64,000 nucleotides of DNA from Thiomicrorhabdus sp. (GTDB lineage: Bacteria > Pseudomonadota > Gammaproteobacteria > Thiomicrospirales > Thiomicrospiraceae): contig WFQP01000006.1 of the NCBI GenBank assembly GCA_015487015.1, positions 2,184-66,183 of the forward strand, given 5' to 3'. Below, piece by piece: positions 2,438-64,000 of the stretch. Position 1 is the stretch's first letter, and each line of letters begins with the position of its first letter. The notes under the pieces were generated by a model. The model was not told where the DNA came from, made no database searches, and saw only the letters and a program-made list of their open reading frames with translations. A program made the position numbers and the translations under genes.

Positions 2438-2576
2438 TTTCCCCCCCCCTCCTTTTTTATTCCCCTATCAATTTTTTTTACCCTATATAAGCTTGATAAC
2501 AGCAAAAAAACACCATCAATCTAATTTAATATATTATTATGGAAAACTGATTAAGGATTGAGATCTGTATGTTCGT

Positions 2577-4232
2577 ATGAAAGCGGCAAAATTATTTATA
2601 AAATGTCTGGAAAATGAAAACGTAGAATTTATTTTTGGTATTCCTGGTGAAGAAAACTTGGATGTCATGGATGCTTTACTGGATTCTGATATTCAATTTA
2701 TAACCACTCGGCATGAGCAAGGTGCGGCCTATATGGCCGATGTGTACGGCCGTTTAACAGGTAAACCAGGTGTATGCCTCTCTACCTTAGGACCTGGTGC
2801 CACCAACTTAGTTACAGGTGTCGCCGATGCCAATATGGATAATGCCCCCTTAGTGGCCATTGCAGGGCAAGCAGGCACCTCTCGTTTACATAAAGAATCT
2901 CACCAAGTGGTGGATTTGGTCAGTATGTTTAAACCCATCACCAAGTACGCCGCACAAGTACTGGAACCCGACACCATTCCTGAAATTGTTCGCAAAGCCT
3001 TTAAACTGGCCGAAGCTGAAAAACCAGGTGCTACCTTTATTGATCTGCCTGAAAATGTGGTGGAACTTGATTCATTAGAAACCCCCTTACCGGTGAGTGT
3101 TAACCGGTTAACGTTTGCAGATAAAGGCTTAATTAAAGAAGCTGCTCAGCTGGTTAAAAATGCTAAAAATCCTTTAATTTTAGTCGGTAATGGTGCTGTC
3201 AGAGCACGAGCAAGTGAACACATCAAAAACTTTGTAGACACCCACAAAATACCGCTTGTAAATACCTTTATGGCCAAAGGAATTATCCCTTTTTCACACG
3301 ATATGGCCATGGGAACCGCAGGTTTACAAAAAGGCGACTATGAAAATGGGGGCTTTGCAAAAGCCGATGTTATTATTTGTGTTGGTTTTGATATGGTGGA
3401 ATACCATCCTCATCTTTGGAACCCAAATAAAAAACATACCTTAATTCATATTGATACAAAAAAAGCCGAAGTAGACAGTCGTTACATTCCTAAAATTGAG
3501 CTCATTGGTAATACCGGTGAAAACTTCTCTTTATTAGGCAAAGCTTTAACCAAACTTAATTCTGGGCCCATAACAGAAACTAATATTGATTTTTTACTCC
3601 GAAATGCAATGGTAAACGAGATGGAACGCTGCCGTGATAGCGATGCATGGCCAATGCTGCCCCAAAAAATTATTTGGGACTTAAGAACTGCCATGAAATC
3701 TTCTGACATTGCCATCAGTGATGTGGGTTCCCATAAAATGTGGATGGCGCGTATGTTTCGCTGTGACGAACCCAATACCTGTATTATTTCAAATGGGTTT
3801 GCTGGCATGGGCATTGCTGTACCAGGAGCCGTTGCGGCAAAATTAGCCTACCCAGAAAAAGGGGTTGTCGCGATCAGCGGCGATGCGGGATTTATGATGA
3901 ATTCACAAGAGATAGAGACCGCTATTCGTTGCCAAGCGCCTATTGTGGTATTAATTTGGAATGATAGTCAATACGGCCTTATTGAATGGAAACAACAACG
4001 CCGCTTTGGTCGCTCTGCTTACATTGATTTTAAAAACCCTGATTTTGTGCAGTATGCAAAGTCATTTGGTGCAGAAGGGGTACGAATAGAATCCGCACAA
4101 CAACTCTTACCTGCGCTTGAAAAAGCACTAAATACAAACAACGTAACCATTATAGATTGCCCTGTTGATTACTCTCAAAATGATCGTTTAACAGCACTAT
4201 TAGGTAACATTTTATCTGAAGTTGAAGGTTAA
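2577..4232 (+). CDS. ThDP-dependent enzyme, acetolactate synthase large-subunit-like (possible 2-oxoglutarate decarboxylase)
   Basis: GIPGEENL, RHEQGAA, GPGATN and GDAGF...WND ThDP-binding motif; no small subunit adjacent. Confidence 0.85.
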   Translation: MKAAKLFIKCLENENVEFIFGIPGEENLDVMDALLDSDIQFITTRHEQGAAYMADVYGRLTGKPGVCLSTLGPGATNLVTGVADANMDNAPLVAIAGQAGTSRLHKESHQVVDLVSMFKPITKYAAQVLEPDTIPEIVRKAFKLAEAEKPGATFIDLPENVVELDSLETPLPVSVNRLTFADKGLIKEAAQLVKNAKNPLILVGNGAVRARASEHIKNFVDTHKIPLVNTFMAKGIIPFSHDMAMGTAGLQKGDYENGGFAKADVIICVGFDMVEYHPHLWNPNKKHTLIHIDTKKAEVDSRYIPKIELIGNTGENFSLLGKALTKLNSGPITETNIDFLLRNAMVNEMERCRDSDAWPMLPQKIIWDLRTAMKSSDIAISDVGSHKMWMARMFRCDEPNTCIISNGFAGMGIAVPGAVAAKLAYPEKGVVAISGDAGFMMNSQEIETAIRCQAPIVVLIWNDSQYGLIEWKQQRRFGRSAYIDFKNPDFVQYAKSFGAEGVRIESAQQLLPALEKALNTNNVTIIDCPVDYSQNDRLTALLGNILSEVEG

Positions 4233-4273
4233 TTTTAAAACCTTTCTTTTTTACAATATTTTAGGAGTCTTCA

Positions 4274-5347
4274 ATGAAACGACTTGCTTTAAAAATACTC
4301 GGTGTCAGTTTAATTTCTGCCAGTTTAATAGGCTGTCAAGAAGAGAGTGAAAGTTACCTTAATTTTACTAAAACCATTGAAGAGCCTATTTTAGTTGGAC
4401 TTTCAACAGAAAAATCAAGGGTTAAATACCATCAACCCTTGCCTAATCTTGAAGACCTAAACTTAAACCCTAAAAAAATAGATTTAGGTAATATGCTGTA
4501 TCACGATACCCGTTTATCAGGTGATGGTACACTCTCTTGCGCCAGTTGCCACATCTATTCAGACGGAGGCGACGATAACGCCCCAGTTTCAACCGGTATT
4601 AACGGTCAATTAGGCCCAATTAATTCACCTACCACCCTTAATAGTGGTTTAAACTTTAAGCAATTTTGGGATGGCCGAGCACCCAATTTACGCCGTCAAG
4701 CCGAAGGCCCCGTTGATAACCCTGGTGAAATGGGGGCTAAATGGCCCAATGCCGTTGCAAGAATTCAAGCCGTTGAACAATACCAAGAGCTATTTAAAGA
4801 TATTTACCCAAAGCAAGGCATTACTAAATACACCATTACCGATGCCATTGCAGAATTTGAACGCAGTTTAATTACTCCTGCACCCATTGATGCCTACTTA
4901 AGAGGCGATGATTCGGCCTTAACAGCCAATCAAGTAGCTGGGTATGAATTGTTTCAAAGTTATGGCTGTATCTCTTGTCATCAAGGGGCTAATTTTGGCG
5001 GTAATATGATGCAAAAATTTGGTGCGATTGCCGCCTTCTTCTCAGAAAAAGATCAAAACTTAGTCAATAATGGTCGTTTTAATTTAACCAACAATGAAGA
5101 GGATAAACACGTATTTAAAGTTCCCTCTTTACGTAATATCGAACTTACAGCCCCTTATTTTCATACAGCGGGAGCACAAACACTAGACCAAGCTATTACC
5201 ACAATGGGAATAAACCAATTAGGTCGACAAATCCCCAAAGAAGATCGAGTTAAAATAGCCGATTTTTTAACCTCTCTAACCGGTACCATTAATGTCAAAC
5301 CTGTTTCACCACCACCGATTAATTCCGCTACTAACAGCCAACATTAA
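4274..5347 (+). CDS. Di-heme cytochrome c peroxidase family lipoprotein
   Basis: Lipobox LIGC, CASCH and CISCH heme motifs, QFWDGRA, NPGEM, FKVPSLRNIELTAPYFH. Confidence 0.92.
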   Translation: MKRLALKILGVSLISASLIGCQEESESYLNFTKTIEEPILVGLSTEKSRVKYHQPLPNLEDLNLNPKKIDLGNMLYHDTRLSGDGTLSCASCHIYSDGGDDNAPVSTGINGQLGPINSPTTLNSGLNFKQFWDGRAPNLRRQAEGPVDNPGEMGAKWPNAVARIQAVEQYQELFKDIYPKQGITKYTITDAIAEFERSLITPAPIDAYLRGDDSALTANQVAGYELFQSYGCISCHQGANFGGNMMQKFGAIAAFFSEKDQNLVNNGRFNLTNNEEDKHVFKVPSLRNIELTAPYFHTAGAQTLDQAITTMGINQLGRQIPKEDRVKIADFLTSLTGTINVKPVSPPPINSATNSQH

Positions 5348-7792: not shown

Positions 7793-8413
7793 TTAATTCA
7801 AAAAAGTAGTTACTTCATTAATAGGCTTTCGTTTAAGCTCTTTATTAGGTAAACAATCTTCATCAATATGCCCTAAATACAACGCGCCAATTAGTTCAAT
7901 ATTCTCTTTTTCAATATTAAGAGCATCATAAGTTCGTTGATCTGAAATAATAGGACCAGTACTCCACTGTACACCTATATTTAACGACCAAGCCATTAAC
8001 TGAAAGTTTTGAATAGCACAGCTACACGCTGCATAATCTTCTTTATAAGCCACTTTATTCATTGATAAATGCTGCCCAACTAATATAACGGAAGGAATGG
8101 CCATAAATTTATCAAATGCTTTTTGATAAAAACGGTCATAATCCATCTCTAATTTACCCAATAACTCTTTTGTTAAGGTTTGTGTATTTTTTAAGGCTCT
8201 ATTATCAGCATAAATATGTGCTAATTGACGCTGTGTGTCCTCACCAGCCAACCAAAACCTCCAGGGCTGGGTTAGCTTATGATTTGGTGCATAAATAGCA
8301 GCATTCAAACACATTTGAATGGATTTTAAATGAACTGGAAATTCTGTTTTTTCTAAAAACTGATAACAGGTTCTTCTTGATTGAATAAAGGGTAATAAAT
8401 GGTTAGGATTCAT
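7793..8413 (-). CDS. Nitroreductase family protein (YdjA-like)
   Basis: SRRT, APNHKLTQPWRF and AIQNFQLMAWSLNIGVQWSTG motifs. Confidence 0.88.
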   Translation of the reverse strand: MNPNHLLPFIQSRRTCYQFLEKTEFPVHLKSIQMCLNAAIYAPNHKLTQPWRFWLAGEDTQRQLAHIYADNRALKNTQTLTKELLGKLEMDYDRFYQKAFDKFMAIPSVILVGQHLSMNKVAYKEDYAACSCAIQNFQLMAWSLNIGVQWSTGPIISDQRTYDALNIEKENIELIGALYLGHIDEDCLPNKELKRKPINEVTTFLN

Positions 8414-11190: not shown

Positions 11191-12840
11191 ATGAATCCTT
11201 CTAAATATAAACGAATGGCCACCCCTGATTTACCCAATCGTCAGTGGCCTAATCAACACCATACAAAAGCCCCTATCTGGGTAAGTGTGGATTTGCGTGA
11301 TGGCAACCAAGCCTTAGCGACTCCCATGAGCGTAGACCAAAAGTTAGCACTCTGGCAAGAGTTGATTCAAATTGGGTTTAAAACTATTGAGATAGGGTTC
11401 CCTTCTGCCAGCCAATTGGAATTTGATTTTACACGTCGTTTAATAGAAGAGAACCTCATTCCTGATGATGTGACCATTCAAGTACTGGTGCAGGCTAGAG
11501 AACACTTAATTGAACGAACCTATGAAGCCCTTAAAGGGGTTAAAAAAGCGGTGGTGCATGTGTATAACACCACCTCCAAATTGCAGCGTGATTATGTGTT
11601 TGAAAAGAGTCAAGATGAAATTAAAGCCATGGCGGTTCAAGGGGCACAATGGGTAAAAGAGTATGCCGTTAAAGCTTCAGAAAGTAATCCTGAATCACAA
11701 TGGATTTTTCAATACTCTCCAGAAAGCTTTTCACAAACAGAAACCGATTATGCGGTAGAAGTGTGTCAAGCAGTGATGGATGTTTGGCAACCTACAGCAG
11801 ATAATAAATGTATTTTAAATTTACCGTCTACGGTGGAAAGTACCTCACCCAATCGATTTGCCGATCAAGTGGAATACTTTATTACGCACTTAAAAAATAG
11901 AGAATCGGTTTTAATTTCAATTCACACCCATAATGATCGTGGTTGTGCTGTTGCCGCAGCCGAATTAGCGTTATTAGCAGGGGCAGATCGTATTGAAGGA
12001 ACTTTGTTAGGCAATGGTGAGCGTACTGGAAATATGGACATTGTGACTTTGGCCATGAACTTATTCAGTGAAGGCATTGATCCAGAATTAGATTTTTCTA
12101 AACCACATCAATGGATTTCTGTGGTCGAGGAGGTAACTAAAATTGAAACACATCCTCGTCATCCGTGGGTAGGAGAGGTGGTATATACCGCTTATTCAGG
12201 CAGTCATCAAGATGCTATTCGTAAATGTTTATTAAAACAACAACCAAATGATTATTGGAATGTGGCGTATTTGCCGATTGATCCTAAAGATATTGGACGA
12301 GATTACGAAGCGATTATTCGAGTAAATAGTCAGTCAGGTAAAGCCGGTTCTAGTTTTGTTTTGGCACAAGAGTACGGTCTGAATTTACCTAAATGGATCC
12401 AGTTAGATTTTGCCCCCGTTGCACAAAAATTAGCTGAATCTCATGGTGGTGTATTAAGTCATAAAGCACTTTATAACGCCTTTATTAAGCATTATCGTTG
12501 TGATCAAACAGAGTTCTCTTTAAACCATTATCAGCTAGATAAACAGGGGGGGGAAGAAATTTTATCACTTGAAATAAATGGTGAAACTTGGCAAGGAAAG
12601 GGTAATGGAACGCTCAGTGCTTTATGTGATGCATGGCAAAAACGTACGGGTAAATCGGTAGATGTTATTGATTATGCCGAACATGCGATACACAATGAGA
12701 TGGTAACAGTTGAAGGCAAAAATGCACAGGCGATGGCCTATGTGTATTTACAACAAGATAACAAGCGTTCAGTAGGGGTTGCATTGGCCAAAGATTCAGT
12801 GAGTGCAATGTTGTTGGCAGTATTAAACGCATTACATTAA
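11191..12840 (+). CDS. leuA: 2-isopropylmalate synthase (LeuA, yeast/actinobacterial-type clade)
   Basis: [41 protein letters not shown]. Confidence 0.93.
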
Positions 12841-12906: not shown

Positions 12907-12936
12907 AAATTAAAGAGGGGGGGGATTTAATAAAGG

Positions 12937-13723: not shown

Positions 13724-15571
13724 ATGCCACGATTTAATCGAAATAAAAGGGATTGTTTTTATATCAATAGTCGAATAAATAGGATGATTTTATTTGGTAT
13801 TTGCTTATCATTTTTTTTGATTTCAATTTTTTCCCCCCCTTTTGTTTATGCACAAATAAATACTAAAGAAACACTGGATTGGTTCACCATGTTTATGTGG
13901 TTATCTGGTGGTTTGGCGTTGTTTTTATTTGGCATGGAACAGATGATTAAAGGATTGCTAGTCATTGCTGGCGATCAAATGAAAAATATTTTAGCGCGTC
14001 TCACTCAAAATAGAGTGATGGGTGCTGTAACCGGTGCGGCTGTGACAGCGGTGATTCAATCCTCTTCCGTTACAACGGTCTTAACGGTTGGGTTTGTTTC
14101 TGCTGGGTTAATGAGTGTTACACAAGCCGCAGGGGTTATTATGGGTGCCAATTTGGGTACTACCATAACCGCTCAAATAGTGGCTTTTAAGGTTACTAAT
14201 TATGCTTTATTGGCTGTGGCATTGGGATTTGTATTGCAATTTTTATCTCAAAAACATAAAAACATTGCCATTGGTCAGTTAATTATGGGGTTGGGTTTGC
14301 TGTTTTTTGGTATGAATGTAATGAGCGAAGGTATGGCTCCTTTACGAGATTATCAACCTTTTTTAGATCTGATGATGGAGATGCAAAATCCTTTTTTAGG
14401 CATTTTAGTGGCATTTATTTTTACCGCTTTAGTGCAATCTTCTTCGGCGACCATCGGTATTATTATTGTCATGGCGAGTAATGGATTTTTAACACTTCCA
14501 GCAGGTATAGCTTTGTTAATGGGAGCTAATTTAGGAACAACGGTTACTGCATTATTATCGGCTATTGGTAAGTCCAGAGAAGCATTAAGAACCGCATTGG
14601 TTCACTCTTTGTTTAGTATTTTAGGGATTTTAATTTGGCTGCCATTTATTCCTATTTTAGTAGATTTGGCTACTTTTATTTCAGCTAACGAGATCATTCA
14701 CAATGGTTTAGATAGAGTGGTTTTGGCAGAACAAACGCCGCGAGAAATTGCCAATGCTAACACCATTTTTAATTTAGTAAGTTTAATTATTTTTTTACCA
14801 CTAATTCCTGTTTTTATTTGGGTAGTCAACAAGTTGGTTCCGGTTTTAGAAGAGGAAAAAACCACCACTACATTTAAAGCCGAGTTTTTAGATGAAACTT
14901 TTATTGCTACACCCTCTATGGCTTTGCAAGCAGTAATGCTTGAAATAGAGCACTACCAAAAAGTATACGGTCTGTTCTATAAACGCACCATTGCATTAAT
15001 TGTGGAACCCAATACAAAAAAGTTGTCACGAGAAATTTTGAATATTGAAAAGTTCAGGGTGTATCAAGCGGAAATTTTGACTTATTTAGGACGAAGTAGC
15101 CAAGTAGAGTTGTCTGTTTCAGAGCAAAATCAACACCTTAAATTGATTACGGTTTTGCACAATTTAGAATCTATGCTTGATATTGTTCAAAGTAATATTT
15201 TTAATGTACTGCATCAGATGATTCATAATGACATTAAACCGAGTGAGACAATGCTTAATTTAGTGGGAAAATTGACCAATGAAGTTGGTCATGCCATTGA
15301 AAATGCATTAACCAGTGTTTGTAAATCTGATTACGAAGCAGCGATGTCGGTGATTGCAATGAGCCCAACCATTGAGTTATTAATTCAAGATGCATTGAGT
15401 CATCAATTTAAGCGTTTTCAAACCACCGAAAAACGCTTAAAAACATTTCGATATGAAATGCAGTTAGTGGAAGGATTTAAACAGATGTATTCATTGGCTC
15501 AACGTATCGCGTATTTGCAAGAAGAGCCAGTTGAAAAATCCGAAGTGCCTAAAAGCCCTAAAGTGGATTAA
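13724..15571 (+). CDS. Na+/Pi cotransporter family protein (NptA/YjbB-like) with PhoU-like C-terminus
   Basis: Duplicated QSSS and GANLGTT motifs; exact start uncertain. Confidence 0.9.
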   Translation: MPRFNRNKRDCFYINSRINRMILFGICLSFFLISIFSPPFVYAQINTKETLDWFTMFMWLSGGLALFLFGMEQMIKGLLVIAGDQMKNILARLTQNRVMGAVTGAAVTAVIQSSSVTTVLTVGFVSAGLMSVTQAAGVIMGANLGTTITAQIVAFKVTNYALLAVALGFVLQFLSQKHKNIAIGQLIMGLGLLFFGMNVMSEGMAPLRDYQPFLDLMMEMQNPFLGILVAFIFTALVQSSSATIGIIIVMASNGFLTLPAGIALLMGANLGTTVTALLSAIGKSREALRTALVHSLFSILGILIWLPFIPILVDLATFISANEIIHNGLDRVVLAEQTPREIANANTIFNLVSLIIFLPLIPVFIWVVNKLVPVLEEEKTTTTFKAEFLDETFIATPSMALQAVMLEIEHYQKVYGLFYKRTIALIVEPNTKKLSREILNIEKFRVYQAEILTYLGRSSQVELSVSEQNQHLKLITVLHNLESMLDIVQSNIFNVLHQMIHNDIKPSETMLNLVGKLTNEVGHAIENALTSVCKSDYEAAMSVIAMSPTIELLIQDALSHQFKRFQTTEKRLKTFRYEMQLVEGFKQMYSLAQRIAYLQEEPVEKSEVPKSPKVD

Positions 15572-21957: not shown

Positions 21958-24213
21958 ATGCAAAAAATAGTTCAAGTGGTTTCTGTTTGCTTATCGCTCT
22001 CTTTGTTAAGTGGTTGTCAGTCTCTTAATATAAAAACACACTCTTCCGTTTTAAGTGAGCAACTAGGTCAGGTAAGTTCACTTGTGATAGATTCAGGTAC
22101 GGTTATTACCGACAATCAACAGGCCTTTGACGCTAAGATCGCTTTAATTGACCAAGCTAAAGAGTCGATTGATTTGGTATATTTTATTTTTTCAGACGAT
22201 TACAGTTCGTCAGTATTGGCTAGTCACTTAATTGCCGCCAGTCAGCGAGGCGTTAAGATTCGTTTATTGGTGGATTATGTCACCAATTACAGTCGTTTAG
22301 ATTGGTTTTCGATGCTGGAAGTAGAGGGGGGGGGAAATTTAACTGTACGTTTTTATGGCCGTCCAACTCAAAATATGATTAAAGATGCCGTGTACATGAC
22401 GCTAGGCTGTAATGAGGTTGCGCCAAGAGAGGATAAAAGTGCTTGCTCTCAAGAGAAGTTATCTAAAATTGAATCAATTTTTCAAGCTGAAAAAATAGAT
22501 GGTGTACCGACAGAGTCACTTAATATTTCCAATATAAATTTAGCAGAATCGGGGCTATTTTTATCAGGCTTATATGGCAAAAATATAGATGCGATGACGC
22601 TTGCCATTGAGCAAGGACAGAATATCTCGATTGAGCACTTGAGCTCAACAAGCAGTACGCCTAATTCGGAGCAAATTAAACGTTTAAAACATTTTGGTAA
22701 AATTTATTGGAAGTCACGTACTGGCCCAGCGTATCAAAGAGTTTTTAACCGTGTTAAAACGGCCTTTGCATTCAAGCATTATGGCGATGCATTAAACCCC
22801 GTTTACGCTTCTTTTTCACAGTTCCTACCGATTGAGCGACAAAATATTGATGAAGCTGCAAGAGATTGGGATTTTTTCACCGACTACACACACCATAAAT
22901 TGCTGTTCGTGGATAACCAATCTTTTATATTGGGCGGACGAAATATTGAAGACTCGTACCATATGCATCCAAACCCATTAAGTGCTAAGTACACCTTTAT
23001 GGACACCGATTTAACCCTTCACTTGTCTGAACCTAGTACCAAAGTGCAGCACCGTTTTGATCAGTTATGGTCTTTTGTTCGCACGGCTTCATTATCAGAA
23101 GTTCGTCAACACGCGCCCAATGATTTTATTGCCAATTGGCATTGGGCTAATAAATCTTGTTCAGAGGCTGTTCAGTTGACAGGGTGTCGAACTGATTGGT
23201 TAAACCGAGTAAATTTAAGTTTACCAAAACGCATTGAACTTGAAAAAGCCAAGCTCAAAAAAAATCAAGAAACGTATCAAACGGAATACCAACCTTCAGA
23301 TACCTTTGCTAAACGGTTTCCCTCTTTTTCAGTAACACCGATGACGATAGGTACTTATCTTGAAAATCTGTCTTATCGCGCAACAGATAAAGATCAAAAA
23401 AGGCAGTTTGGTGCAGAGTACAATCAGGCATTAAAGAGTAATAAGAACATTCATCACTACTGGTTAAGAAAATTAAAAGGACTCTGTTCTGTTGAGGATA
23501 AATCCTCACGGAATGTTTATTTTTATAACGCCTATTTTTTCCCCCCCCTTAATATGATCTTGGCATTTAAGGAGTTGGTGAATGGTTCTAATGATTGTAG
23601 TCATGTCACCTTAAACATCATTACCAACTCGGTAGGTACTACCGATTTGGTGCCGGTTAATATTTTGGCAAGCCATAGCATGAAAGCCTTTGCAGATTTT
23701 TATACAGATCATTTTGATGAGAAAAAAAGTGCCACCATACGCTATTTTGAATATCAAAAAACGGCAGAAGAGGCGTTGTCACTGCACAGTAAAGTGACTT
23801 TGTTTGACGATGCTTTGGTGATTGGTTCGGCTAATTTAGATGCACGCAGTTATTTTATGGACACCAATAATGCACTGGCCATTGAAGGCGATGAAGGGTT
23901 GATAAAGCAGTATCAACAATATCTTGAGTCTCGAATAAATAATTCAAAACTTTTGCAGCTTAAAAATGTGGCACTCTCTTCTGCCACACTGGAGAAGATG
24001 ATGTTGAATGATCGACGGTTATTACAGGCGTCTTTGGAAAAGTACGCGGTACAAAATAAGTTGTCTGAAGCACAACACCAAGATCTGATTCAAAAAATGG
24101 AAGAGTTAACGATGGCGGCTTATCAATTAACCAAACGTTTGTTAGAGAGTGATTTAAACAGTGAGCAACAAACAATCAGTGAACGATTTTATCAACTGTT
24201 TAAAACCATTTAA
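21958..24213 (+). CDS. Phospholipase D family lipoprotein (two HKD motifs, ClsC/YmdC-like, enlarged)
   Basis: Lipobox LLSGC; HHKLLFVD..GGRN and HSKVTLFD..GSANLD. Confidence 0.85.
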   Translation: MQKIVQVVSVCLSLSLLSGCQSLNIKTHSSVLSEQLGQVSSLVIDSGTVITDNQQAFDAKIALIDQAKESIDLVYFIFSDDYSSSVLASHLIAASQRGVKIRLLVDYVTNYSRLDWFSMLEVEGGGNLTVRFYGRPTQNMIKDAVYMTLGCNEVAPREDKSACSQEKLSKIESIFQAEKIDGVPTESLNISNINLAESGLFLSGLYGKNIDAMTLAIEQGQNISIEHLSSTSSTPNSEQIKRLKHFGKIYWKSRTGPAYQRVFNRVKTAFAFKHYGDALNPVYASFSQFLPIERQNIDEAARDWDFFTDYTHHKLLFVDNQSFILGGRNIEDSYHMHPNPLSAKYTFMDTDLTLHLSEPSTKVQHRFDQLWSFVRTASLSEVRQHAPNDFIANWHWANKSCSEAVQLTGCRTDWLNRVNLSLPKRIELEKAKLKKNQETYQTEYQPSDTFAKRFPSFSVTPMTIGTYLENLSYRATDKDQKRQFGAEYNQALKSNKNIHHYWLRKLKGLCSVEDKSSRNVYFYNAYFFPPLNMILAFKELVNGSNDCSHVTLNIITNSVGTTDLVPVNILASHSMKAFADFYTDHFDEKKSATIRYFEYQKTAEEALSLHSKVTLFDDALVIGSANLDARSYFMDTNNALAIEGDEGLIKQYQQYLESRINNSKLLQLKNVALSSATLEKMMLNDRRLLQASLEKYAVQNKLSEAQHQDLIQKMEELTMAAYQLTKRLLESDLNSEQQTISERFYQLFKTI

Positions 24214-24274: not shown

Positions 24275-26047
24275 TTAATGTTTATAAAGTGAGGCCAGTT
24301 GTTTGCCTTTTTTCCCCTCTTTTTGAGAAGGGGGGGGGAAATCTTTTGCCCCTTCTTTAAGTTGTTTGCAGAGTGTTTCTAATAACCCATCAGGCAACTC
24401 AGTATTTGAAAATAGGTGTTCTTCCAATTGGTAAATTCCCTGTTTTAAATCGGTGTTTTCTAAGTCGCTTAGTGACCCTATAGAGTGGTTTTCTTTCAAG
24501 TATTTTTTGAGCTGTTTGTAAAACTCACTGGGCTCAGGCATTGTACTGCTGTTGCAGAATGGGGCGGTGCTTGTTTGTTTGAGTGGTACAGCAAAAGAGT
24601 CACGGTTAGGTGAGTCGTTTGTTTCAAGCTGTTGCAATTGAGATTTCAGTTTTTGGGTTTGTTTACGCCATAAAATAAGGGTGATAAACCATGCAAAACC
24701 TAACAGACTGGTAATCAGTGGCCAGACAAAAGAGGTTTCAGATGTTTCACGTGAAACACCTGATGGAATGATGCTATTCATATCACTCAATACCGTTGTG
24801 TTTGGGGTTTGTGTTGGTTGTGAGGGTGTATTAGCTGAGGAATTTAACTCTGGCAATACGGTCAGTTGACGTGCTTTGATAACCGCTGTTTCCATAGTTT
24901 GGGTTTCGGTATTAAACCAGCTTAAACGTTGCTCAGGTAATGTTATTTTACCCGCTTGGGTAAAGATAATGGTTTGCTTGGTTTGTTGCACACTACGAAC
25001 CCCACTATCTAACAGAGTCTCCTCTGTAACGGGTTGATCGCTGTATACCTTAAAGCTGGCTTGGTTTTCGGTTTTTATTTCGGGCAGTTGGCTGGCACGT
25101 AGCCCTGTAGCGGTTAAGGTGAGGGTACGGGTTAAACTGTCCCCAACACGCAGAGTCTTCTGCTGTGTATTAGTCAGTGTTTCAGATAGGGTGATAGACT
25201 TGGCGGGTAACCAAAGTGCATTTGGATTGGATTTCTGCTGTATGGGTTCTGGCAATACGGTAAGTGTTTGGTCTTTGGCGACTTCTTGAACACCTTTTTG
25301 GCGATTACGGTACTGTTGTATGCCTGAAAAAATAGGCCCTTTAATTACAACCTCTCCACTTTTTTGTGGGTAAAAGGCATATAGCCATTCATAAACCGTA
25401 TAGTTTTTTCCATTGATATTTTTACCATAAACGGCTTGGTCTTTGATTGTGGTGGTGAGACTGTTCTCAAAAATAGGAGGGCGAATATTGCCTTGAAAGG
25501 CTCCTAAAAAATAAAATTTTAAACGATAGAGAACCTCTTCTTGTACATAAGCTTGTTGTTTATTAAGGCTGGATTCTAGAAAGTAATTGCCCATTGTTGT
25601 AATGGATTTTTTGGGGGCAGGCCGTACCTTTATTTTATAGGGGGCACTTTGAACGCCATCAATGTGTAGAGGGGGCACAATTAAGTCCCCTTCTTGTTTA
25701 GGAAGTAGGGTAATTTGCCATTGTGTGCTGCTGTTAAAACTGCCATTAATAATAGAGATTTGATTGCTTTGTTGACGCCCTAAAATTTCAAACTGATCTT
25801 TAAGGTTGTCTAAGTTGAGCTGGCTGTTACGAGTTTGAAAATCAGCTCGAATAGTGAGGGTGATGATGTCTCCCAGTTCAACCGTTTGACGGTCGGTAAA
25901 CACATCCAATGTTTTTGCAAAAACCCATAAAGGAAGTGTTAATAAGACAATCAACAGCACAACACGCCATGACAGTATGGAGTGCTGTTTTGGATAGTTT
26001 AGAATGGATTGAGTATTGAGTTGTATCGTATTCATAAGGCTTACCAT
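24275..26047 (-). CDS. batD: BatD family protein
   Basis: Signal peptide, Ig-like repeats, IINGSF, YVQEEV, W(F)NTET, C-terminal TM; last gene of the MoxR operon. Confidence 0.85.
   Translation of the reverse strand: MVSLMNTIQLNTQSILNYPKQHSILSWRVVLLIVLLTLPLWVFAKTLDVFTDRQTVELGDIITLTIRADFQTRNSQLNLDNLKDQFEILGRQQSNQISIINGSFNSSTQWQITLLPKQEGDLIVPPLHIDGVQSAPYKIKVRPAPKKSITTMGNYFLESSLNKQQAYVQEEVLYRLKFYFLGAFQGNIRPPIFENSLTTTIKDQAVYGKNINGKNYTVYEWLYAFYPQKSGEVVIKGPIFSGIQQYRNRQKGVQEVAKDQTLTVLPEPIQQKSNPNALWLPAKSITLSETLTNTQQKTLRVGDSLTRTLTLTATGLRASQLPEIKTENQASFKVYSDQPVTEETLLDSGVRSVQQTKQTIIFTQAGKITLPEQRLSWFNTETQTMETAVIKARQLTVLPELNSSANTPSQPTQTPNTTVLSDMNSIIPSGVSRETSETSFVWPLITSLLGFAWFITLILWRKQTQKLKSQLQQLETNDSPNRDSFAVPLKQTSTAPFCNSSTMPEPSEFYKQLKKYLKENHSIGSLSDLENTDLKQGIYQLEEHLFSNTELPDGLLETLCKQLKEGAKDFPPPSQKEGKKGKQLASLYKH
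24743..24758. other. parS site, perfect consensus (within batD)
   Basis: TGTTTCACGTGAAACA. Confidence 0.92.
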
Positions 26048-28149: not shown

Positions 28150-28252
28150 TATATTTCCCCCCCCCTTAGGAGTTTATCCGTGAATAAAAATTTATTGCGG
28201 AAAAGATATTTTGGCCATCTTTTATGTTTATTTTCCTCGCTACGATATTTAT

Positions 28253-40427: not shown

Positions 40428-41011
40428 TGCCATTTTCTCCCCCCCCTTTGTTGGCTCTATGTTTGTTTCTTTTGAGTTATTCTAATTTTGCTTTTTCTAA
40501 AAACGCCATTCACTTTTCGTATTTAAAAGAGGTGTTTCAAAATGAACAACTGGCTTTGAATGCGGTGGTGGATTTTAAGCTGCCTGAACAAGTGCTAGAT
40601 GCCATTCAACATGATATTCCTATTTTATTTAAAACAGAAATTGTGCTTTTTGAGAAACGTGATTTTTTTGGTTTTCAAATTGAACAGACTCAAAAAAAAA
40701 TTGAATATTATACGGAGCTGTATGCGTATGGCGTGAATCGGTATTATGTTTTATATAACCACCGAAACCATAAACGACAAACTTTTCCAACGCTTAAAAA
40801 TGCATTGCAAACATTAGGTACCTTGCAGGCGCTTCCTGTTGTAAACCAGTCGGTACTGGATCCAGAGAAACACTATTTTTTTAAAATACGTATTTCTCTG
40901 GATAAATGGAAACTTCCCCCCCCCTTATTTATTGAAGCGTTGATTGAGACGTATTGGCAATTGGACAGCGATTGGCAAGAAATTACTATACAACTTCCAA
41001 AAAGTGGGTAA
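40424..41011 (+). CDS. DUF4390 family exported protein
   Basis: Signal peptide, LD..KLPPPL...W motif, conserved position between rsmB and the NtrY-like kinase. Confidence 0.8.
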   Translation: MMPFSPPPLLALCLFLLSYSNFAFSKNAIHFSYLKEVFQNEQLALNAVVDFKLPEQVLDAIQHDIPILFKTEIVLFEKRDFFGFQIEQTQKKIEYYTELYAYGVNRYYVLYNHRNHKRQTFPTLKNALQTLGTLQALPVVNQSVLDPEKHYFFKIRISLDKWKLPPPLFIEALIETYWQLDSDWQEITIQLPKSG

Positions 41012-44592: not shown

Positions 44593-45990
44593 ATGAATAT
44601 TGTTATTTTAGGGGCAGGACAAGTGGGCTCTTCGTTGGCGGAGTTGTTGGCTTATGAAAACCACAATGTCACTGTTGTGGATTTAGATCGTCTGCGTTTG
44701 CAACGTTTGCAAGACCGTTTGGATATTCGAACGATTTGTGGCCATGCTTCGCACCCTGATGTTTTGTCGCAAACAGGTTTAGATGGCGCTGACTTGCTCA
44801 TTGCGGCGACTCAGAATGATGAAACCAATATATTGGCATGTCAAATTGCACATATAAATCACAAGGCCGTTACTAAAATTGCTCGGGTTCGAAGTCAATC
44901 GTATTTAGATCACCCTGAGTTGTTTAATCGTGATGCGGAGGCGGGTTGTGTGCCGATTGATGTGTTAATCAGTCCTGAAAGTTTAGTAAAAGATTATATT
45001 TTACAGTTGATTGATTATCCAGGGTCTTTGCAGGTGATTAACTTTGCGCAAGGCAAGGTTCGGTTAGTGGCGGTTAGGGCTGAAGAGAGTGGTCTATTAG
45101 TTAATAAAAAAATAGGATTGATTAAGGAACACTTACCTGAAAATATTAAAACTCGAATTGTCGCTATCTATCGCAAAGATGAAATTGTGATGCCAACCGC
45201 GGATGTAGTGATAAAAGAAGAAGATGAAGTGTTTTTTTTGGCAAAATCAGAGCATATTTCAACCATTGTTTCGGAGTTAAGACGTCGTAAAATAAGACCT
45301 TCACGTAATATTATGATTGGGGGGGGGGGAAATATTGGGTTTAGTTTGGCGCAAGCGCTTGAAAAAGCCCACCAAGTTAAACTGATTGACCGTAGCATTC
45401 AACAAGCTCGACAAAATGCTGAAATTTTAGAAAAAACCATTATTATTCATGGTGATGTCTCAGATAAAGACCTGCTTCTTGAAGAAAATATTGATGATAT
45501 TGATCTGTTTATTGCGGTGACCAATAATGATGAAGCCAATATTATTTCAGGCATGTTAGCGAAAAAACTGGGTGTTAAGCGGGTGATTGCTCTGGTGAAT
45601 AACCAATCGTATGTTGAGTTGATTCAGCGTAATAGTATTGATGTGGCGATTTCAGCGGACAGCATTACCACCAGTCATTTATTGCACTATATGCGTGAAG
45701 GCGATACGGTTAAAGCGGCCGCATTACGTCGTGGTACGGCTGAAGCGATGGAAGTGGTGGCACACGGCAGTGAAAACAGCTCTGATATCATAGGGAAACA
45801 AATCGGAGATATTCCTTGGCCTAAAGACATTACGATTGGCTGTATTATTCGTGATGAAGAGGTGTTGATTGCACATCGAAATTTGGTGATTGAAGCAGAA
45901 GATCACGCTATTTTATTTGTTTCGGATACCAGCAGTGCCGCAGAGGTTTTGCAGTTATTTTCTCCAGAGGTTAAGAAAAGTTGGTTTTAA
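44593..45990 (+). CDS. trkA: Trk potassium uptake NAD-binding subunit TrkA
   Basis: GAGQVG and GGGNIG Rossmann motifs, two RCK domains. Confidence 0.95.
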   Translation: MNIVILGAGQVGSSLAELLAYENHNVTVVDLDRLRLQRLQDRLDIRTICGHASHPDVLSQTGLDGADLLIAATQNDETNILACQIAHINHKAVTKIARVRSQSYLDHPELFNRDAEAGCVPIDVLISPESLVKDYILQLIDYPGSLQVINFAQGKVRLVAVRAEESGLLVNKKIGLIKEHLPENIKTRIVAIYRKDEIVMPTADVVIKEEDEVFFLAKSEHISTIVSELRRRKIRPSRNIMIGGGGNIGFSLAQALEKAHQVKLIDRSIQQARQNAEILEKTIIIHGDVSDKDLLLEENIDDIDLFIAVTNNDEANIISGMLAKKLGVKRVIALVNNQSYVELIQRNSIDVAISADSITTSHLLHYMREGDTVKAAALRRGTAEAMEVVAHGSENSSDIIGKQIGDIPWPKDITIGCIIRDEEVLIAHRNLVIEAEDHAILFVSDTSSAAEVLQLFSPEVKKSWF

Positions 45991-45993
45991 TCG

Positions 45994-61081: not shown

Positions 61082-61123
61082 TACTTGGATTGTGACAAGT
61101 ATTGTTTGAAAGGGTTGAAGCAG

Positions 61124-62437
61124 ATGAGTTATGTATTACAGCAGCGAAAAAAAATAGTCATAATTTTAATCCTGAGCTTTTTTATTGTAGGTACTCTAGC
61201 TATTTTTGTTGTAAGAGATACCACACAATTTTTTATTGAAAAGCAAGCAGAGGAGGTAGCAAAAATTGTGGGCACCTTTGCAAAGACAGCACGTTCTGTC
61301 TATTCTGATGTGGCAATTTCTAAACTAAAAAATGATGGTTATGGCTCGCATGTTGATTCAGAAGTTCATGAGGGATATATTCCTATCCCTGCTCAGTTTT
61401 TAAAAGCCTTAGGGAAAGCAACCGAACAAAATACAGCTAATTTGTTTCATTATCGCCCTGTGAGTCGCTGGAATATTGAACCCTCTCAAGGGCTTTCAAA
61501 TGATTTTTTAAAGTGGGCATGGCCTCAACTTGAAGCTCAAGATCAGGCAAACCCTAAAGGTCCAATAGATTGGCAACCTATTTTTCGCATTGAGCAAGAG
61601 AATGGTGTGAATGTATTTCGATATTTAACAGCAGATTCAGCAACCTCTGCAAGTTGTGTGGCTTGCCATAATCATTATGAAACAACAGAGAATGTGAAAA
61701 AATTTCGTGAACAGGCAGGGGTTCCACTTGGAAAGTCATGGAAGCAACATCAATTATTAGGTGCGCTTGAAATTACCATTCCATTGAGTCGTATTGAGCA
61801 CGTTGCGGAAGAGCAGCTTAATCGAGCAGTACTGTGGATTTCGATTATCTTTTTTGGTTGTTTGGCATTAATAGGAGCGATTTATTTTTTAAATGCTCGA
61901 CTGCATCGAAACTTAGAAAACCTTTCTTGGGAAGCGAATCATGATTCGATGACGGAGTTATTAAACCGCCGCGGCTTTGAACATGAAGCGGAGGCTTTAT
62001 GGGAAGAGGCGATCAATAATCATAAAGAGCACTCATTGTTATTTTTAGATTTGGATAAATTTAAAGCGATTAATGATACTTACGGACATCAGGCTGGAGA
62101 TGCTATTTTAAAAGAGGTCGCACTTACTTTGAGCTATGAACGACGAGACTATGATGTGGTGGCTCGTTTAGGGGGGGATGAATTTGCTGTTTTATTGCCT
62201 TACTGTCCAATTGAAATTGCTGAGTTAGTGGCAAAAAGAATTTTACGTAAGATTGATGAAATTTGTATTGATTGGGAGGGAGATGTTCTTACCGTTGGTG
62301 TGAGCATTGGTTTAGCTAAAATTGATGAAAATGCTGAAAGTATTCACGAGGTTATGGAAAGAGCTGATTCCGCCAGTTATGTTGCAAAAAGATCGCCTGA
62401 TAATAAGGTGGTGGCTTATTTAGAGCCTTCGGAGTAA
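61124..62437 (+). CDS. Diguanylate cyclase with periplasmic c-type heme (DUF3365/Tll0287-like) sensor domain
   Basis: TM, then IPAQF...FRYL..D..SCVACH...W..LLGAL, TM, then D..T.LLNRR, DLDKFK.INDTYGH..GD, RLGGDEF. Confidence 0.88.
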   Translation: MSYVLQQRKKIVIILILSFFIVGTLAIFVVRDTTQFFIEKQAEEVAKIVGTFAKTARSVYSDVAISKLKNDGYGSHVDSEVHEGYIPIPAQFLKALGKATEQNTANLFHYRPVSRWNIEPSQGLSNDFLKWAWPQLEAQDQANPKGPIDWQPIFRIEQENGVNVFRYLTADSATSASCVACHNHYETTENVKKFREQAGVPLGKSWKQHQLLGALEITIPLSRIEHVAEEQLNRAVLWISIIFFGCLALIGAIYFLNARLHRNLENLSWEANHDSMTELLNRRGFEHEAEALWEEAINNHKEHSLLFLDLDKFKAINDTYGHQAGDAILKEVALTLSYERRDYDVVARLGGDEFAVLLPYCPIEIAELVAKRILRKIDEICIDWEGDVLTVGVSIGLAKIDENAESIHEVMERADSASYVAKRSPDNKVVAYLEPSE

Positions 62438-62527
62438 GAAGGATATGGTTTGTAGTTTTTTGATATTTTAAACTGAGTATATGGTTTTTTATTTCAACTT
62501 TGTGTGGAATGAATTATAATCGAAATC

Positions 62528-62920
62528 ATGAAACACTCGTTGATGGCTTTTTTAATCCTATTTTCAGCGCTCTCCTCTTCGTGGGCAGTGGCAGTGTTTC
62601 CGAGTGTTCAACTGAATTATTTGTCTACGACAGAACAAGTGAACACGAATGATTCAGTCTTAACCCTTGGGCATTCTAATTGCCCTTCTATGGGTATGAC
62701 AGAGTCGCTTAAAATCCAAGAAGATTATACTTGTCCAAACTGTTTGGATAACTGTCAGTGTGACCATAATAGTTGTCATAAAATGAGCTCTCCTTTGGTA
62801 GGTATGACGGTTTATACGCTTAATACTCCAACCCTAACGGAAGTATCCATTACTTTTGTCCCTCCCCATTTAGAAAACGCCCCTGTTTTTCTTAATTTTC
62901 GTCCCCCTAAAATTTCATAA
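62528..62920 (+). CDS. Exported Cys/His-rich small protein ending in RPP (DUF2946/CopL-like)
   Basis: Signal peptide, CPNCLDNCQCDHNSCH, C-terminal FRPPKIS; directly upstream of the cusB-like gene. Confidence 0.7.
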   Translation: MKHSLMAFLILFSALSSSWAVAVFPSVQLNYLSTTEQVNTNDSVLTLGHSNCPSMGMTESLKIQEDYTCPNCLDNCQCDHNSCHKMSSPLVGMTVYTLNTPTLTEVSITFVPPHLENAPVFLNFRPPKIS

Positions 62921-63005
62921 AATTACTTTTATTTAAGCTTGATGTGTCATTCAGCCGAATTGGGTGGGTGCCTCTATTTAATATCATTTAAAAAGGTTTT
63001 TTATT

Positions 63006-64000
63006 ATGAAACGTTCATCTTCCTATGTATTGCTGTGCCTATATTTGGCTATTTTAATCCCCTCTTTTGTCAGTGCAGAAGGCACAGATATTCATGTGGG
63101 TCACTTAAGTGTATCAAATGAAGAGGATCATGTTTCTGAAATAGAGATTTTAGAAAGTGAATCTACCACTGTTTATAAATATGTCTGCCCAATGCATTCT
63201 CAAATTATTCGTGACCATGAAGGAACGTGTCCTATTTGTGGTATGGATTTAGTGAAGCAAGCAATTCAATCGTCAGAAGAGTCTGCAAGCCTTTCGATAG
63301 GGGGGGGAGAAAATTCTGCACAAGGCCTTAAACAAGGACTTGCTATCCGAACAATTGAGGTACAAAAAACCACTTTATGGCGTTATATTCCAACCTTTGG
63401 CAAGGTGGTAGCGGATGATGCTAAGGTGGTTCATATTCACCCAAGAGCTTCGGGCTGGATCAGTGATTTGAGTGTACACAGCTTGGGGGATACGGTTAAG
63501 AAAGGCCAGTTACTTTATCGTTTGTATTCGCCAGAAATTGTATCCGCACAACAGGACTTTTTATTGGCGTTGCAAAATCGTAAACGCTTAGGTGTATCGG
63601 CCAACTCTCTTGTGGCATCGGCTAAAACACGATTAGCCCTTTTAGGAGTGAGCAGAGGAGTGGTTAAGCAGATTCAACGTCATAAAAAACTGATTAATGA
63701 AACTCCTATTTATGCCAGTCAAAATGGAGTGGTTTCGGCTTTGTCCGTTCAAGAAGGGATGTATATTCAACCTCAAACAGAGTTAATGAGTATTTCAGAC
63801 TTGTCCAGTGTTTGGGTGGAAGCTGAAATCTTACCTTTACAGCAAAGCTGGGTAAAAGAGGGGCTAACGGCCGATTTAACCAGTGAGGCGTTTCCTGAAC
63901 AGCGTTGGGAGAGTCAAATTGAGTATATTTATCCATTAACCGATGTGCGTACCCAGGCGTTAAAGGTGCGCTTGCCTGTTTTAAATGAAAAGCATATTTT
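63006..64000 (+). CDS. CusB-like heavy-metal RND efflux periplasmic adaptor (partial; absent from ORF track)
   Basis: Manual translation from ATG 63006: YVCPMH...CPICGMDLV heavy-metal-binding motif, HPRASGWI, V.KGQLLYRLYSPEIVSAQQDF, DLSSVWVEA. Confidence 0.9.
   Translation, partial: MKRSSSYVLLCLYLAILIPSFVSAEGTDIHVGHLSVSNEEDHVSEIEILESESTTVYKYVCPMHSQIIRDHEGTCPICGMDLVKQAIQSSEESASLSIGGGENSAQGLKQGLAIRTIEVQKTTLWRYIPTFGKVVADDAKVVHIHPRASGWISDLSVHSLGDTVKKGQLLYRLYSPEIVSAQQDFLLALQNRKRLGVSANSLVASAKTRLALLGVSRGVVKQIQRHKKLINETPIYASQNGVVSALSVQEGMYIQPQTELMSISDLSSVWVEAEILPLQQSWVKEGLTADLTSEAFPEQRWESQIEYIYPLTDVRTQALKVRLPVLNEKHI

Follow-up and report, generated by a model that had tools for sequence, protein, structure and literature searches.

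What are the long poly-G tracts that recur through this 64-kb stretch of Thiomicrorhabdus DNA (the window, meaning the whole stretch analysed), and what keeps them there? An earlier note had counted 14 runs of 8–11 G or C and only four of exactly 7, with A preceding 13 and following 13 of the 14 on the G strand. All of these runs were found again, and both flank counts were reproduced.

A poly-G word at the DNA level

The excess of long over 7-G runs that had been seen in the window extends to the 1.98-Mb metagenome-assembled genome (MAG) as a bimodal length distribution of G/C tracts, with 1496 runs of length 5, 374 of 6, 265 of 7, 288 of 8, 174 of 9, 59 of 10 and 15 of 11. Runs of at least 8 number 540 genome-wide, or ∼1 word copy per 3.7 kb, whereas A/T runs in the same genome decay monotonically with length. 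Compared with motif-less relatives, G runs of 3–5 are only slightly commoner; the excess sets in abruptly at 7 and peaks at 8–9. The runs share an asymmetric consensus of ∼20 bp, (A)nA-G8-9-ARAWWTTT, which persists genome-wide. Its core varies from 7 to 13 G, and the flanks add ∼6 bits, the 3′ flank being specific out to +8. The reversed pattern is 3-fold rarer, interrupted one-off variants occur at about the chance level, and AGGGGGGGGA is present in six copies in the window versus 0.02 in dinucleotide-preserving shuffles. The spacing of copies is close to random (CV 0.97).

In a codon-preserving shuffle, 51 ± 6 coding runs of at least 8 were expected and 337 were observed, GGGGGG and CCCCCC codon pairs being 3.5–4 times as frequent as expected. 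Runs of this length encode 61% of PPP, 34% of GGG, 70% of EGGE and 100% of FPPP peptides. Copies are intragenic in 62% of cases, in both orientations, and since spacers, G-sense genes and C-sense genes give a consensus of equal strength, the word is a DNA-level one. The proposal of the earlier note that the runs are a selected dispersed chromosomal signal holds, in that the word is a selected or driven signal and not the result of chance, artefact or protein-level selection. Nothing was found in favour of the other options raised there, a G4-forming element or a nucleoid/segregation site; a single G-run should be unable to form an intramolecular G4.

Copies within genes, their origin and their stability

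Eleven runs of the window had been placed in frame within intact genes. ORF placement agrees for all 11, and Pfam supports the names given: LeuA, PLD (twice), BatD, DUF58, DprA, Fmt, DUF4390 (twice), TrkA and CusB-like. leuA (11191–12840) carries a G8 word in frame at 12546..12553 (plus strand), and another G8 lies in the convergent spacer past it (12917..12924, plus). A G9 word at 2441..2449 (minus strand, C9 on plus; aggaG9aaattt on the G strand) is also intergenic. The PLD-domain gene (21958–24213) holds a G9 at 22326..22334 (plus), which genomes G018 and G023 both keep (in G023 one base away, owing to A/G changes), and a G8 at 23541..23548 (minus, C8 on plus), which is kept in both G023 (as C9) and G018. 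Antisense copies on the plus strand are found in batD (24275–26047, minus; G9 at 24330..24338), in the DUF58 gene (29814–30809, minus; G8 at 30729..30736), whose orthologous G018 site is without the word, and in the linker of dprA (SPP; G8 at 36590..36597). At this last site, SPP or PPP is retained in four motif-bearing relatives, and other strains carry a T>G SNP at 36599 (+2) that changes ATAA to AGAA. A G9 at 28157..28165 (minus) occupies a Shine-Dalgarno-like position, 7 nt before the start codon (ATG) of the VWA/TPR gene (26041–28149, minus). On the plus strand, the variable linker of fmt (QGGGK) contains a G9 at 38923..38931, which L001 and L002 keep and which L003 and L014 have at a shifted position; a G11 at 45319..45329 spans the GxGxxG loop of TrkA (GGG GGG GGG GGA) and is identical in length in four runs from three studies; and a G8 (ataG8agaaaa) lies in the cusB-like gene at 63300..63307. 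The DUF4390 gene has a G8 in its signal-peptide region (FSPPPL; 40439..40446, minus, C8 on plus) and a G9 (CCC CCC CCC; 40916..40924, minus, C9 on plus) where LPAPL of relatives has become LPPPL. Among the 7-G runs, that at 13833..13839 (minus, C7 on plus; ORF 13724–15571) has A on both sides on the G strand and is a short member of the family; the others, all on the plus strand, lie antisense in the VWA/TPR gene (27372..27378), in rsmB (AAA GAG GGG GGC; 40214..40220) and in a GGDEF gene (61085–62437; 62171..62177).

When the affected codons were aligned with those of relatives, the tracts proved to have arisen by substitution, at some sites at the expense of conserved residues, as in DUF4390 and in RsmB, where the conserved KPGG is replaced by KEGG or KQGG, KEGG occurring only in the motif-bearing clade. 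For TrkA, the earlier note had contrasted IGGGGN with the IAGGGN of homologues; that Gly is not clade-specific, since motif-less relatives have both forms, but the use of GGG for all the Gly codons is, the relatives mixing GGT, GGC and GGA. Orthologous sites that are tract-less read GGC GGT or CCCCGCCT. Run boundaries move by A/G transitions with the frame kept, and length changes between species are substitutions. A miniature mobile insertion was rejected as the source, because conserved sites keep the same length in orthologue alignments.

The word is limited to six related species among 99 genomes of the family; other MAGs of the genus lack it. In a three-protein tree, four motif-bearing rows form one supported clade, which L004 adjoins in an unresolved fork. 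Tracts were kept at a length of at least 8 at 35 of 56 orthologous sites in G023 (flanks 79% identical) and at 21 of 62 in G018 (flanks 75% identical), retention that exceeds the 10–15% estimated for neutral decay from per-site identity. The bearers are a small group of uncultured bacteria, sulfur bacteria of deep-sea vents. An unrelated Piscirickettsiaceae MAG, G099, has another poly-G word, AAAAATCACCA-G7-9-T, with a wholly different flank of 11 nt; it has 103 copies of TCACCAGGGGGGG and a similar kind of distribution.

Contigs from four runs of three independent vent studies, at 45–650x depth, contain no tract indels despite ∼45 SNPs, a comparison at the level of contigs, which hide minority variants. 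Each of the 337 coding tracts preserves the reading frame, no gene is interrupted by a tract, and a possible frameshift junction was seen at only 1 of 203 spacer tracts. A sequencing or assembly artefact was rejected on the grounds that in-frame orthologous copies are present in six species from different projects and are reproduced by independent assemblies. We conclude that the runs are neither an artefact nor a phase switch. The word is very probably real, DNA-level, substitution-born, conserved, clade-restricted and stable.

Spacer copies and replication strand

Spacers are enriched, non-coding DNA (10% of the genome) holding 37% of copies. Close inverted pairs of the word number 41 and close direct pairs 0; a complementary partner run accompanies 35% of spacer copies versus 6% of controls, 17 copies have a T-rich tail, and 41% of spacer-copy neighbourhoods fold with z < −2. 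About 60 C-runs follow a stop codon at a distance of 2–15 nt, and 13 G-runs precede a start codon by 3–10 nt, that at 28157 being an example. Both strands are used. The earlier count of 10 of 14 runs on the leading strand is correct, given the sign change of the GC skew at ∼8–10 kb. Spacer copies show no replication polarity (86 on the G-rich strand and 77 on the other, or 53:47), and the 65% of all copies on the G-rich strand is below the 66–78% of ordinary G3–G7 runs. Polarity is likewise absent in G023, G018 and G099, which argues against signals of the KOPS or Chi type.

These features bear on several readings of the word. The inverted pairs, the folding and tails of spacer copies, and the runs beside stops and starts would suit a role in RNA or expression, in which G8...C8 hairpins act as terminators, post-stop C-runs serve termination or Rho loading, pre-start G-runs are ribosome-binding sites and genic copies are spill-over. 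We consider this very unlikely, since most copies are genic, in both orientations and with an identical logo, where termination and initiation are unwanted; hairpins hold only ∼13% of copies, and secondary use in terminators is also seen for the uptake sequences of Neisseriaceae (DUS) and Pasteurellaceae (USS). Chi and KOPS/AIMS, polar octamers, resemble the word in being G-rich and over-represented at about one per 4 kb, but they are strongly co-oriented with replication. A Chi-like hotspot or a KOPS/AIMS-like FtsK guide, to which the overall share on the G-rich strand might point, is grouped with a mobile insertion and an artefact (the word is so far seen in MAGs only) as highly improbable, given the near-even spacer copies, the G-run background, the constant lengths of alignments, the agreement of assemblies and the fact that other Thiomicrorhabdus MAGs lack the word. 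Poly-G/C contingency loci of Campylobacter, Helicobacter and Neisseria are also 8–11 nt homopolymers, some within ORFs, and G8–G11 tracts are the classical motif of phase variation; such loci number tens per genome and belong to surface or modification genes, their lengths differ both between strains and within a strain, and no consensus in the flanks is required. Hypermutable loci switching on a massive scale by slipped-strand mispairing are scarcely credible here, with 540 copies, a fixed flank that slippage does not need, housekeeping genes such as fmt, trkA, leuA and rsmB among the bearers, frames intact, lengths altered between species by substitution and no length variation among strains at the consensus level, even though simple sequence repeats are described as indel hotspots in PMC3315296.

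Possible readers of the word

The computable features of an uptake-sequence-like word are all present: abundance, both strands, permissive genic sites, spacer enrichment, inverted pairs and clade specificity. Genes for ComEC, DprA, PilT/PilU, a ComEA-like protein and prepilins were found; they are equally present in motif-less relatives, and so none explains the clade restriction. None of the six motif-bearing genomes has TfoX, and the secretins detected were GspD-like and MSHA-like only, none of them reaching the cut-off for PilQ. A literature search found no paper on DNA uptake or transformation in Thiomicrorhabdus.

The same absence of a clade-specific competence gene fits two other readings. 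The word might be the site of another non-polar reader of DNA, its copies kept by selection for that function: an abundant nucleoid-associated or structure-specific protein recognising a rigid G:C block beside an A-tract that bends readily, a 'self' mark for defence or repair, or a topoisomerase/gyrase site. The shared logo, codon shuffle, retention and substitutions fit this equally well, near-random spacing is expected of a dispersed binding site, and the G8 core with other flanks in G099 hints at a shared structural feature of G8:C8. We hold such a reader to be possible but rather doubtful: no candidate protein was found, and we know of no nucleoid protein that forces amino-acid changes in conserved enzymes or that has a 20-bp, ∼24-bit site in hundreds of copies. 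Chi and other known self marks are polar, unlike the word, and none of the phage contigs in IMG/VR shows enrichment for it, so that nothing suggests phages imitating a self mark. Alternatively, the word could be a by-product, with no reader, of biased mutation or mismatch repair, near-complete purine or G runs beside A-tracts being perfected by dislocation, templated misalignment or a context-specific repair enzyme gained by the clade. Very-short-patch repair and proposals for cyanobacterial HIP1 are parallels. HIP1 (GCGATCGC) and similar words are hyper-abundant in coding and non-coding DNA, spread by point substitution and have had an origin in repair bias proposed for them, but HIP1 has an invariant palindromic sequence and is linked to methyltransferases, whereas the word is asymmetric and variable in length, in bearers without a Vsr homologue. 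Frame-preserving A/G transitions, purine-rich flanks, the near absence of interrupted intermediates (as expected if conversion is fast) and action everywhere regardless of function agree with such a bias. We nevertheless judge it unlikely, as short runs are barely raised before the abrupt excess, the 3′ flank is specific and the reversed pattern rare, and a generic G-run process does not predict the different flank of G099; moreover, MutS is intact in all genomes examined, replication-strand asymmetry is not increased, and the CCN to GAG change of RsmB (Pro to Glu) needs substitutions that do not extend a G-run.

Among described systems, the closest analogue appears to be DUS and USS ('DUES'), and the word resembles the 'self' tags by which Neisseria and Haemophilus recognise their own DNA. 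By this analogy, we tentatively propose, as the likeliest of the readings considered, that uptake machinery may be the reader. A sequence-specific process on double-stranded DNA would maintain the word regardless of reading frame, transcription or replication direction: a DNA-binding part of the uptake or recombination machinery would prefer fragments that carry it, and repeated uptake of same-species DNA with homologous replacement would spread new copies (molecular drive), with selection for self-recognition possibly added. Purifying selection would limit copies to spacers, linkers, signal peptides and Gly-Gly or Pro-Pro positions, and some may have been co-opted as terminator hairpin arms and Shine-Dalgarno-like elements.

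Like DUS and USS, the word is short and lineage-specific, with hundreds of copies on both strands, in permissive genic positions and frames, arising by substitution, and with a GC-rich core beside an A/T-rich flank, as in Hin-USS; related lineages carry different words. Spacer enrichment and terminator-like inverted pairs are shared as well and are among the DUS/USS features described in 10.1101/2025.10.24.684340, which places about half of DUS/USS in terminators, against the ∼13% of copies in hairpins here. REP/REPIN and other extragenic palindromic repeats also reach hundreds of copies and form inverted-pair hairpins after genes, but REPs are extragenic and spread as units, whereas the word is mostly intragenic, made by substitution and leaves conserved protein lengths unchanged. 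Other differences from DUS/USS are the lower density, the host, a genus of Thiotrichales that lacks TfoX and a clear PilQ and for which competence has not been reported, and the homopolymer core of variable length, which to our knowledge is unlike any DUS or USS. USS genomes have many one-mismatch copies, whereas one-off variants are near chance here. Finally, the longest tract-free stretch of the window contains gyrB, recF, dnaN and dnaA, opposite to the bias towards genome-maintenance genes reported for DUS.

A dispersed poly-G word in the window and in its genome

The 14 G/C runs of 8–11 nucleotides and the four runs of 7 that an earlier note had described in the window are all present, and no others occur. 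On the G strand an A precedes 13 of the 14 longer runs and an A follows 13 of the 14, as had been claimed, and the over-representation is borne out by the six occurrences of AGGGGGGGGA in the window compared with 0.02 in dinucleotide-preserving shuffles. Eleven runs do lie in frame within ORFs, and Pfam searches agreed with the gene names proposed for them: LeuA, a PLD-domain protein (two runs), BatD, DUF58, DprA, Fmt, DUF4390 (two runs), TrkA and a CusB-like protein. The reported count of 10 of 14 runs on the leading strand is consistent with a change in the sign of GC skew at about 8–10 kb. The cumulative skew minimum falls near 10 kb of the window, consistent with the oriC proposed at 8414–8826. 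The longest stretch of the window without tracts (45.3–62.2 kb) holds trkH, prk, gyrB, recF, dnaN, dnaA, yidC and mnmE; since it is full of conserved genes, including those for genome maintenance, the word avoids highly constrained genes.

The window belongs to a MAG (G000; 1.98 Mb in 144 contigs, 42% GC, 85% complete) that groups by marker identity with uncultured Thiomicrorhabdus of hydrothermal vents. In this genome the number of G/C runs falls from 5227 at length 4 to 1496, 374 and 265 at lengths 5, 6 and 7, rises to 288 at length 8, and then declines through 174, 59, 15, 3 and 1 at lengths 9 to 13. A/T runs in the same genome decay monotonically with length. The 540 runs of at least 8, when read on the G strand, have one asymmetric consensus in common, (A)nA-G8-9-ARAWWTTT (referred to here as the word), so that the flank pattern first noticed in the window is upheld genome-wide. 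On the 5′ side an A is found at −1 (86–97%) and at −3, and the 3′ side reads A, A/G, A, W, W, T, T, T, with positions +1 to +5 nearly devoid of C. The footprint of the word is ∼20 bp, its flanks contribute ∼6 bits on top of the core, and the reversed pattern is found three times less often. Runs of 7 largely share these flanks and runs of 6 do so weakly. When helical phasing was looked for, another A/T bump was detected between +18 and +22, but it is too weak to interpret.

Gene calls for G000 were ORF-based and class 90% of the genome as coding. The runs comprise 195 G-sense copies in genes, 142 C-sense copies in genes and 201 intergenic copies; 37% of copies are thus intergenic compared with 10% of the genome that is non-coding, a 3.7-fold enrichment in spacers, and the logo is identical across the three classes. 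We conclude that the runs are a DNA-level word, neither a coding nor an RNA feature. A codon shuffle, which preserves each protein sequence and the codon usage of each gene and had been suggested as the appropriate null, gave 51 ± 6 coding runs of at least 8, compared with 337 observed. By the same shuffle, 127 Gly-Gly pairs would be expected to use GGGGGG and 57 Pro-Pro pairs CCCCCC, whereas 448 and 227, respectively, were observed. Runs of at least 8 encode 61% of PPP, 34% of GGG, 70% of EGGE, 74% of SPPL and 100% of FPPP peptides, and the word is usually present wherever the protein sequence permits. The favoured frame of G-sense G8 is xAG GGG GGG GAA (80 of 121), and the first tenth of genes is two-fold enriched in copies.

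Strand placement, which the earlier note had also proposed to map, was assessed by local GC skew, and the G-rich strand carries 65% of the runs. Ordinary G3–G7 runs show a stronger bias (66–78%), and spacer copies divide 86:77 (53%) between the G-rich and the other strand. With spacer copies at 53% and an overall bias below that of ordinary G-runs, we reject a polar signal of the Chi or KOPS type. Skew polarity is likewise lacking in G023 and G018, two other motif-bearing Thiomicrorhabdus MAGs, and in G099, an unrelated Piscirickettsiaceae MAG with a different poly-G word. Even spacing of copies was looked for and is absent, the spacing being near-random (CV 0.97).

Substitutional origin, stability and phylogenetic range

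Alignment of the affected codons with relatives, as had been recommended, revealed no length change at conserved sites. Sister-species sites without the word read GGC GGT or CCCCGCCT, and at orthologous sites the run boundaries move through A/G changes with the frame preserved. The TrkA glycine that had been singled out as unusual is not itself specific to the clade, but its codon choice is: members of the clade encode the GxGxxG loop as GGG GGG GGG GGA, and other relatives use mixed GGT, GGC and GGA codons. In RsmB the KPGG proline, present in 10 of 10 genomes without the motif, is replaced in the clade by KEGG or KQGG, creating A-G7. Similarly, LPAPL of DUF4390 has become LPPPL in the clade, encoded by CCC CCC CCC in the window and in two loci from motif-bearing relatives (L003 and L014); a third such locus, L002, has LPPPL but not the run. 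Variable linkers accommodate the word in both DprA and Fmt, its position in Fmt varying among relatives, and signal peptides are further permissive sites. These alignments indicate that the word is made by substitution, even against protein conservation. Because substitution occurs without length change at conserved sites, mobile insertion is ruled out, and REP- or MITE-like extragenic units spread by insertion are rejected on the same evidence and on the 62% of copies that are intragenic. In trkA of L003 (positions 13414–13424) the loop is IWGGGN, encoded by ATT TGG GGG GGG GGG AAT, in which a Trp at the first GxGxxG position apparently makes T-G11.

A homopolymer is expected to be mutationally dangerous. 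Logan contigs from four sequencing runs of three independent vent studies, covering window positions 36300–46000 at 45–650x, contain ∼45 SNPs and no inserted or deleted bases, the G11 of trkA included. No tract-interrupted genes were found, all coding tracts being in frame, and long open frames in different phases flank only one of 203 spacer tracts, an ordinary gene junction. All 42 genomes of the genus have an intact MutS, and loss of mismatch repair is rejected as the cause. Since there are no tract indels, no interrupted genes and no MutS defects, the word is, at least in consensus sequences, neither a sequencing artefact nor classical phase variation. The poly-G artefact that had been raised as a concern is contradicted by the agreement of contigs from independent studies as well as by the uninterrupted genes; phase-variable contingency loci are rejected at the level of the consensus, as contigs do not reveal minority variants. 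Despite its homopolymer core, the word is stably inherited in 276 genes, among them fmt, trkA, leuA and rsmB, and in MAG annotation such tracts would be mistaken for phase-variable loci or sequencing errors. At window position 36599 (+2 of the word in dprA) strains of two other studies carry a T>G change, G8-ATAA becoming G8-AGAA; both states are compatible with the A/G/T preference of the motif at +2.

Within the family set of 99 genomes, AGGGGGGGGARAW has 58–129 copies per genome in six Thiomicrorhabdus MAGs (G000, G018, G019, G023, G024 and G025), all of 1.8–2.2 Mb. It occurs 0–3 times in the other 36 genomes of the genus, including all complete isolates and nine other MAGs, and is essentially absent from the remaining 57 genomes of the family. 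In a tree of Fmt, RsmB and TrkA the window falls in a 100/100 clade with three motif-bearing relatives, and a fourth relative of lower word density is adjacent to it; the word is missing from the T. arctica group. The logos of G023 and G018 match that of G000 apart from small flank differences, and the spacer enrichment is the same. At orthologous sites G023 keeps 35 of 56 runs at 8 or more and seven more at 7 (flanks 79% identical), and G018 keeps 21 of 62 and 11 more at 7 (flanks 75% identical). With an expected retention of 10–15%, itself an estimate from per-site identity, words appear to be kept at orthologous positions above expectation. Relatives without the motif have almost as many runs of 3–5, the excess starting at length 7, and the origin of the word appears to be very recent and phylogenetically sharp. 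Six carriers can be set against sister species that lack the word but have nearly the same gene set, a contrast sharp enough to make its origin tractable by comparative genomics.

Candidate readers and competing explanations

The uptake-related genes found were those for ComEC, DprA, PilT/U, a ComEA-like protein scoring just below the cut-off and an MSHA-like pilin cluster, and the survey of competence genes recovered ten prepilin-type genes. The pilin cluster (L141, G000 C16:461-8601) encodes a two-component system alongside two PilA-like proteins; its three large prepilin-like proteins (292–502 aa) have no Pfam domain besides the N-methyl motif, and its overall appearance is MSHA-like. ComEC is found in nearly all genomes of the genus, and ComEC, PilT/U and the large pilin-like protein also occur in checked genomes without the motif; the 464-aa pilin-like protein is accordingly rejected as a clade-specific gene. 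Checks of PilQ, ComEA, PilT and PilM did not separate carriers from non-carriers. A search of G000, G099 and the three motif-bearing genomes that were tested gave no secretin above the PilQ cut-off, and TfoX_N is absent from all six motif-bearing genomes and present in nine without the motif. An IMG/VR scan for AGGGGGGGGAGAAAA returned 39 contigs with single matches only, none of them enriched.

G099, an uncultured Piscirickettsiaceae MAG of 1.6 Mb and 38% GC on a distant branch, carries a second poly-G word. Its locus L017 (G099:C9) has three copies of aaatcaccaG7-8t, at 1872–1879, 7946–7953 and 9812–9818, and one G099 copy occupies the same variable Fmt linker as the word of the window. Genome-wide, TCACCAGGGGGGG occurs 103 times and its reversed control not at all; the logo is AAAAA(T)TCACCA-G7-9-T, and 44% of copies are in spacers. 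The two lineages place different flanks on a shared G8 core, A-G8-ARAWWTTT in vent Thiomicrorhabdus and AAAAATCACCA-G8-T in G099. Recurrence of the core with unrelated but specific flanks favours sequence-specific reading and argues against a generic G-run mutation process.

To our knowledge, sequence-specific uptake signals occur in only two bacterial families, and their origin and their toleration by genomes, through molecular drive or through selection, have long been debated. The cognate receptor is ComP in Neisseria and the predicted ComN in Pasteurellaceae. In the searchable literature we found no description of the word or of competence in Thiomicrorhabdus, nor of such a word among over-represented poly-G tracts. 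The hallmarks of the uptake sequences of Neisseriaceae (DUS) and Pasteurellaceae (USS) are occurrence in genes and spacers, permissive positions and frames, terminator inverted repeats, dialects and a molecular-drive model (10.1101/2025.10.24.684340). The word displays those hallmarks that can be computed: hundreds of copies, many more than base composition or codon usage predicts, both orientations without replication-strand polarity beyond base skew, enrichment in spacers, genic copies made by substitution at permissive positions in preferred frames, and inverted-repeat copies that resemble terminators, here from sequence folding alone. It differs in that the terminator-like share is lower (∼13% of copies), the homopolymer core varies in length and one-off variants are nearly absent. 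As to dialects, the word is confined to six species, with slight flank differences in G023, and G099 has an unrelated poly-G word; no graded series was seen.

Since the computable hallmarks of DUS and USS are present, we tentatively favour uptake-type machinery as the reader, at something short of an even chance. Such a DNA-binding reader would prefer fragments bearing the word, homologous replacement would spread it, purifying selection would restrict its permissible sites, and some copies would be co-opted as terminators or ribosome-binding sites. That a DNA-level reader other than uptake machinery is responsible seems rather unlikely. A mutation or repair bias acting without any reader is unlikely, given the sharp length threshold of the runs, the specific asymmetric flanks, the different flanks in G099, an intact MutS and the absence of Vsr; as Vsr was not found in the motif-bearing genomes, biased repair of that type is rejected. 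Words of the HIP1 type are palindromic and tied to a methyltransferase and Vsr-type repair, whereas this word is asymmetric and its carriers lack Vsr. A primarily RNA-level role is very improbable, and phase variation, polar signals, insertion or artefact each retain only a slight chance.

Returning to uptake-type reading, poly-G-core words could conceivably form an unrecognised class of lineage-specific ‘self’ DNA tags, read by a receptor through a rigid G8:C8 core with flanks proper to each lineage, although we regard this broader proposal as doubtful. They would possibly be the first sequence-specific DNA-uptake systems beyond Neisseriaceae and Pasteurellaceae. If uptake machinery does read the word, self-recognition in transformation extends further than before, both phylogenetically and chemically, and vent communities gain a gene-flow marker. 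If the word is not read by uptake machinery, it points to an unrecognised process at the DNA level, one powerful enough to replace conserved residues. Among hyper-abundant lineage-specific DNA words, the unusual aspects of this one are the homopolymer core, its stable inheritance in hundreds of essential genes, the sharp and very recent origin and the sister ‘dialect’ in another lineage.

Paired copies and copies near stop and start codons

Pairs of runs no more than 45 nt apart are all inverted (24 G..C and 17 C..G, 41 in total), with no direct pair. A complementary run of at least 5 lies within 55 nt of 35% of spacer copies compared with 6% of controls, and 41% of spacer neighbourhoods fold at z below −2, with a T-rich tail in 17. 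From the inverted pairs, the folding and the T-rich tails, a subset of copies resembles bidirectional intrinsic terminators. A start codon follows at a distance of 3–10 nt in about 13 cases, for instance at window position 28157. In addition, ∼60 single copies in G000 are so oriented that the mRNA strand has their C-run 2–15 nt 3′ of a stop codon (for example C4:5031-5039 and C7:11814-11821). They may act in termination or in the loading of Rho, or the A/T flank may supply the stop codons. This orientation is about three times commoner than the opposite one.
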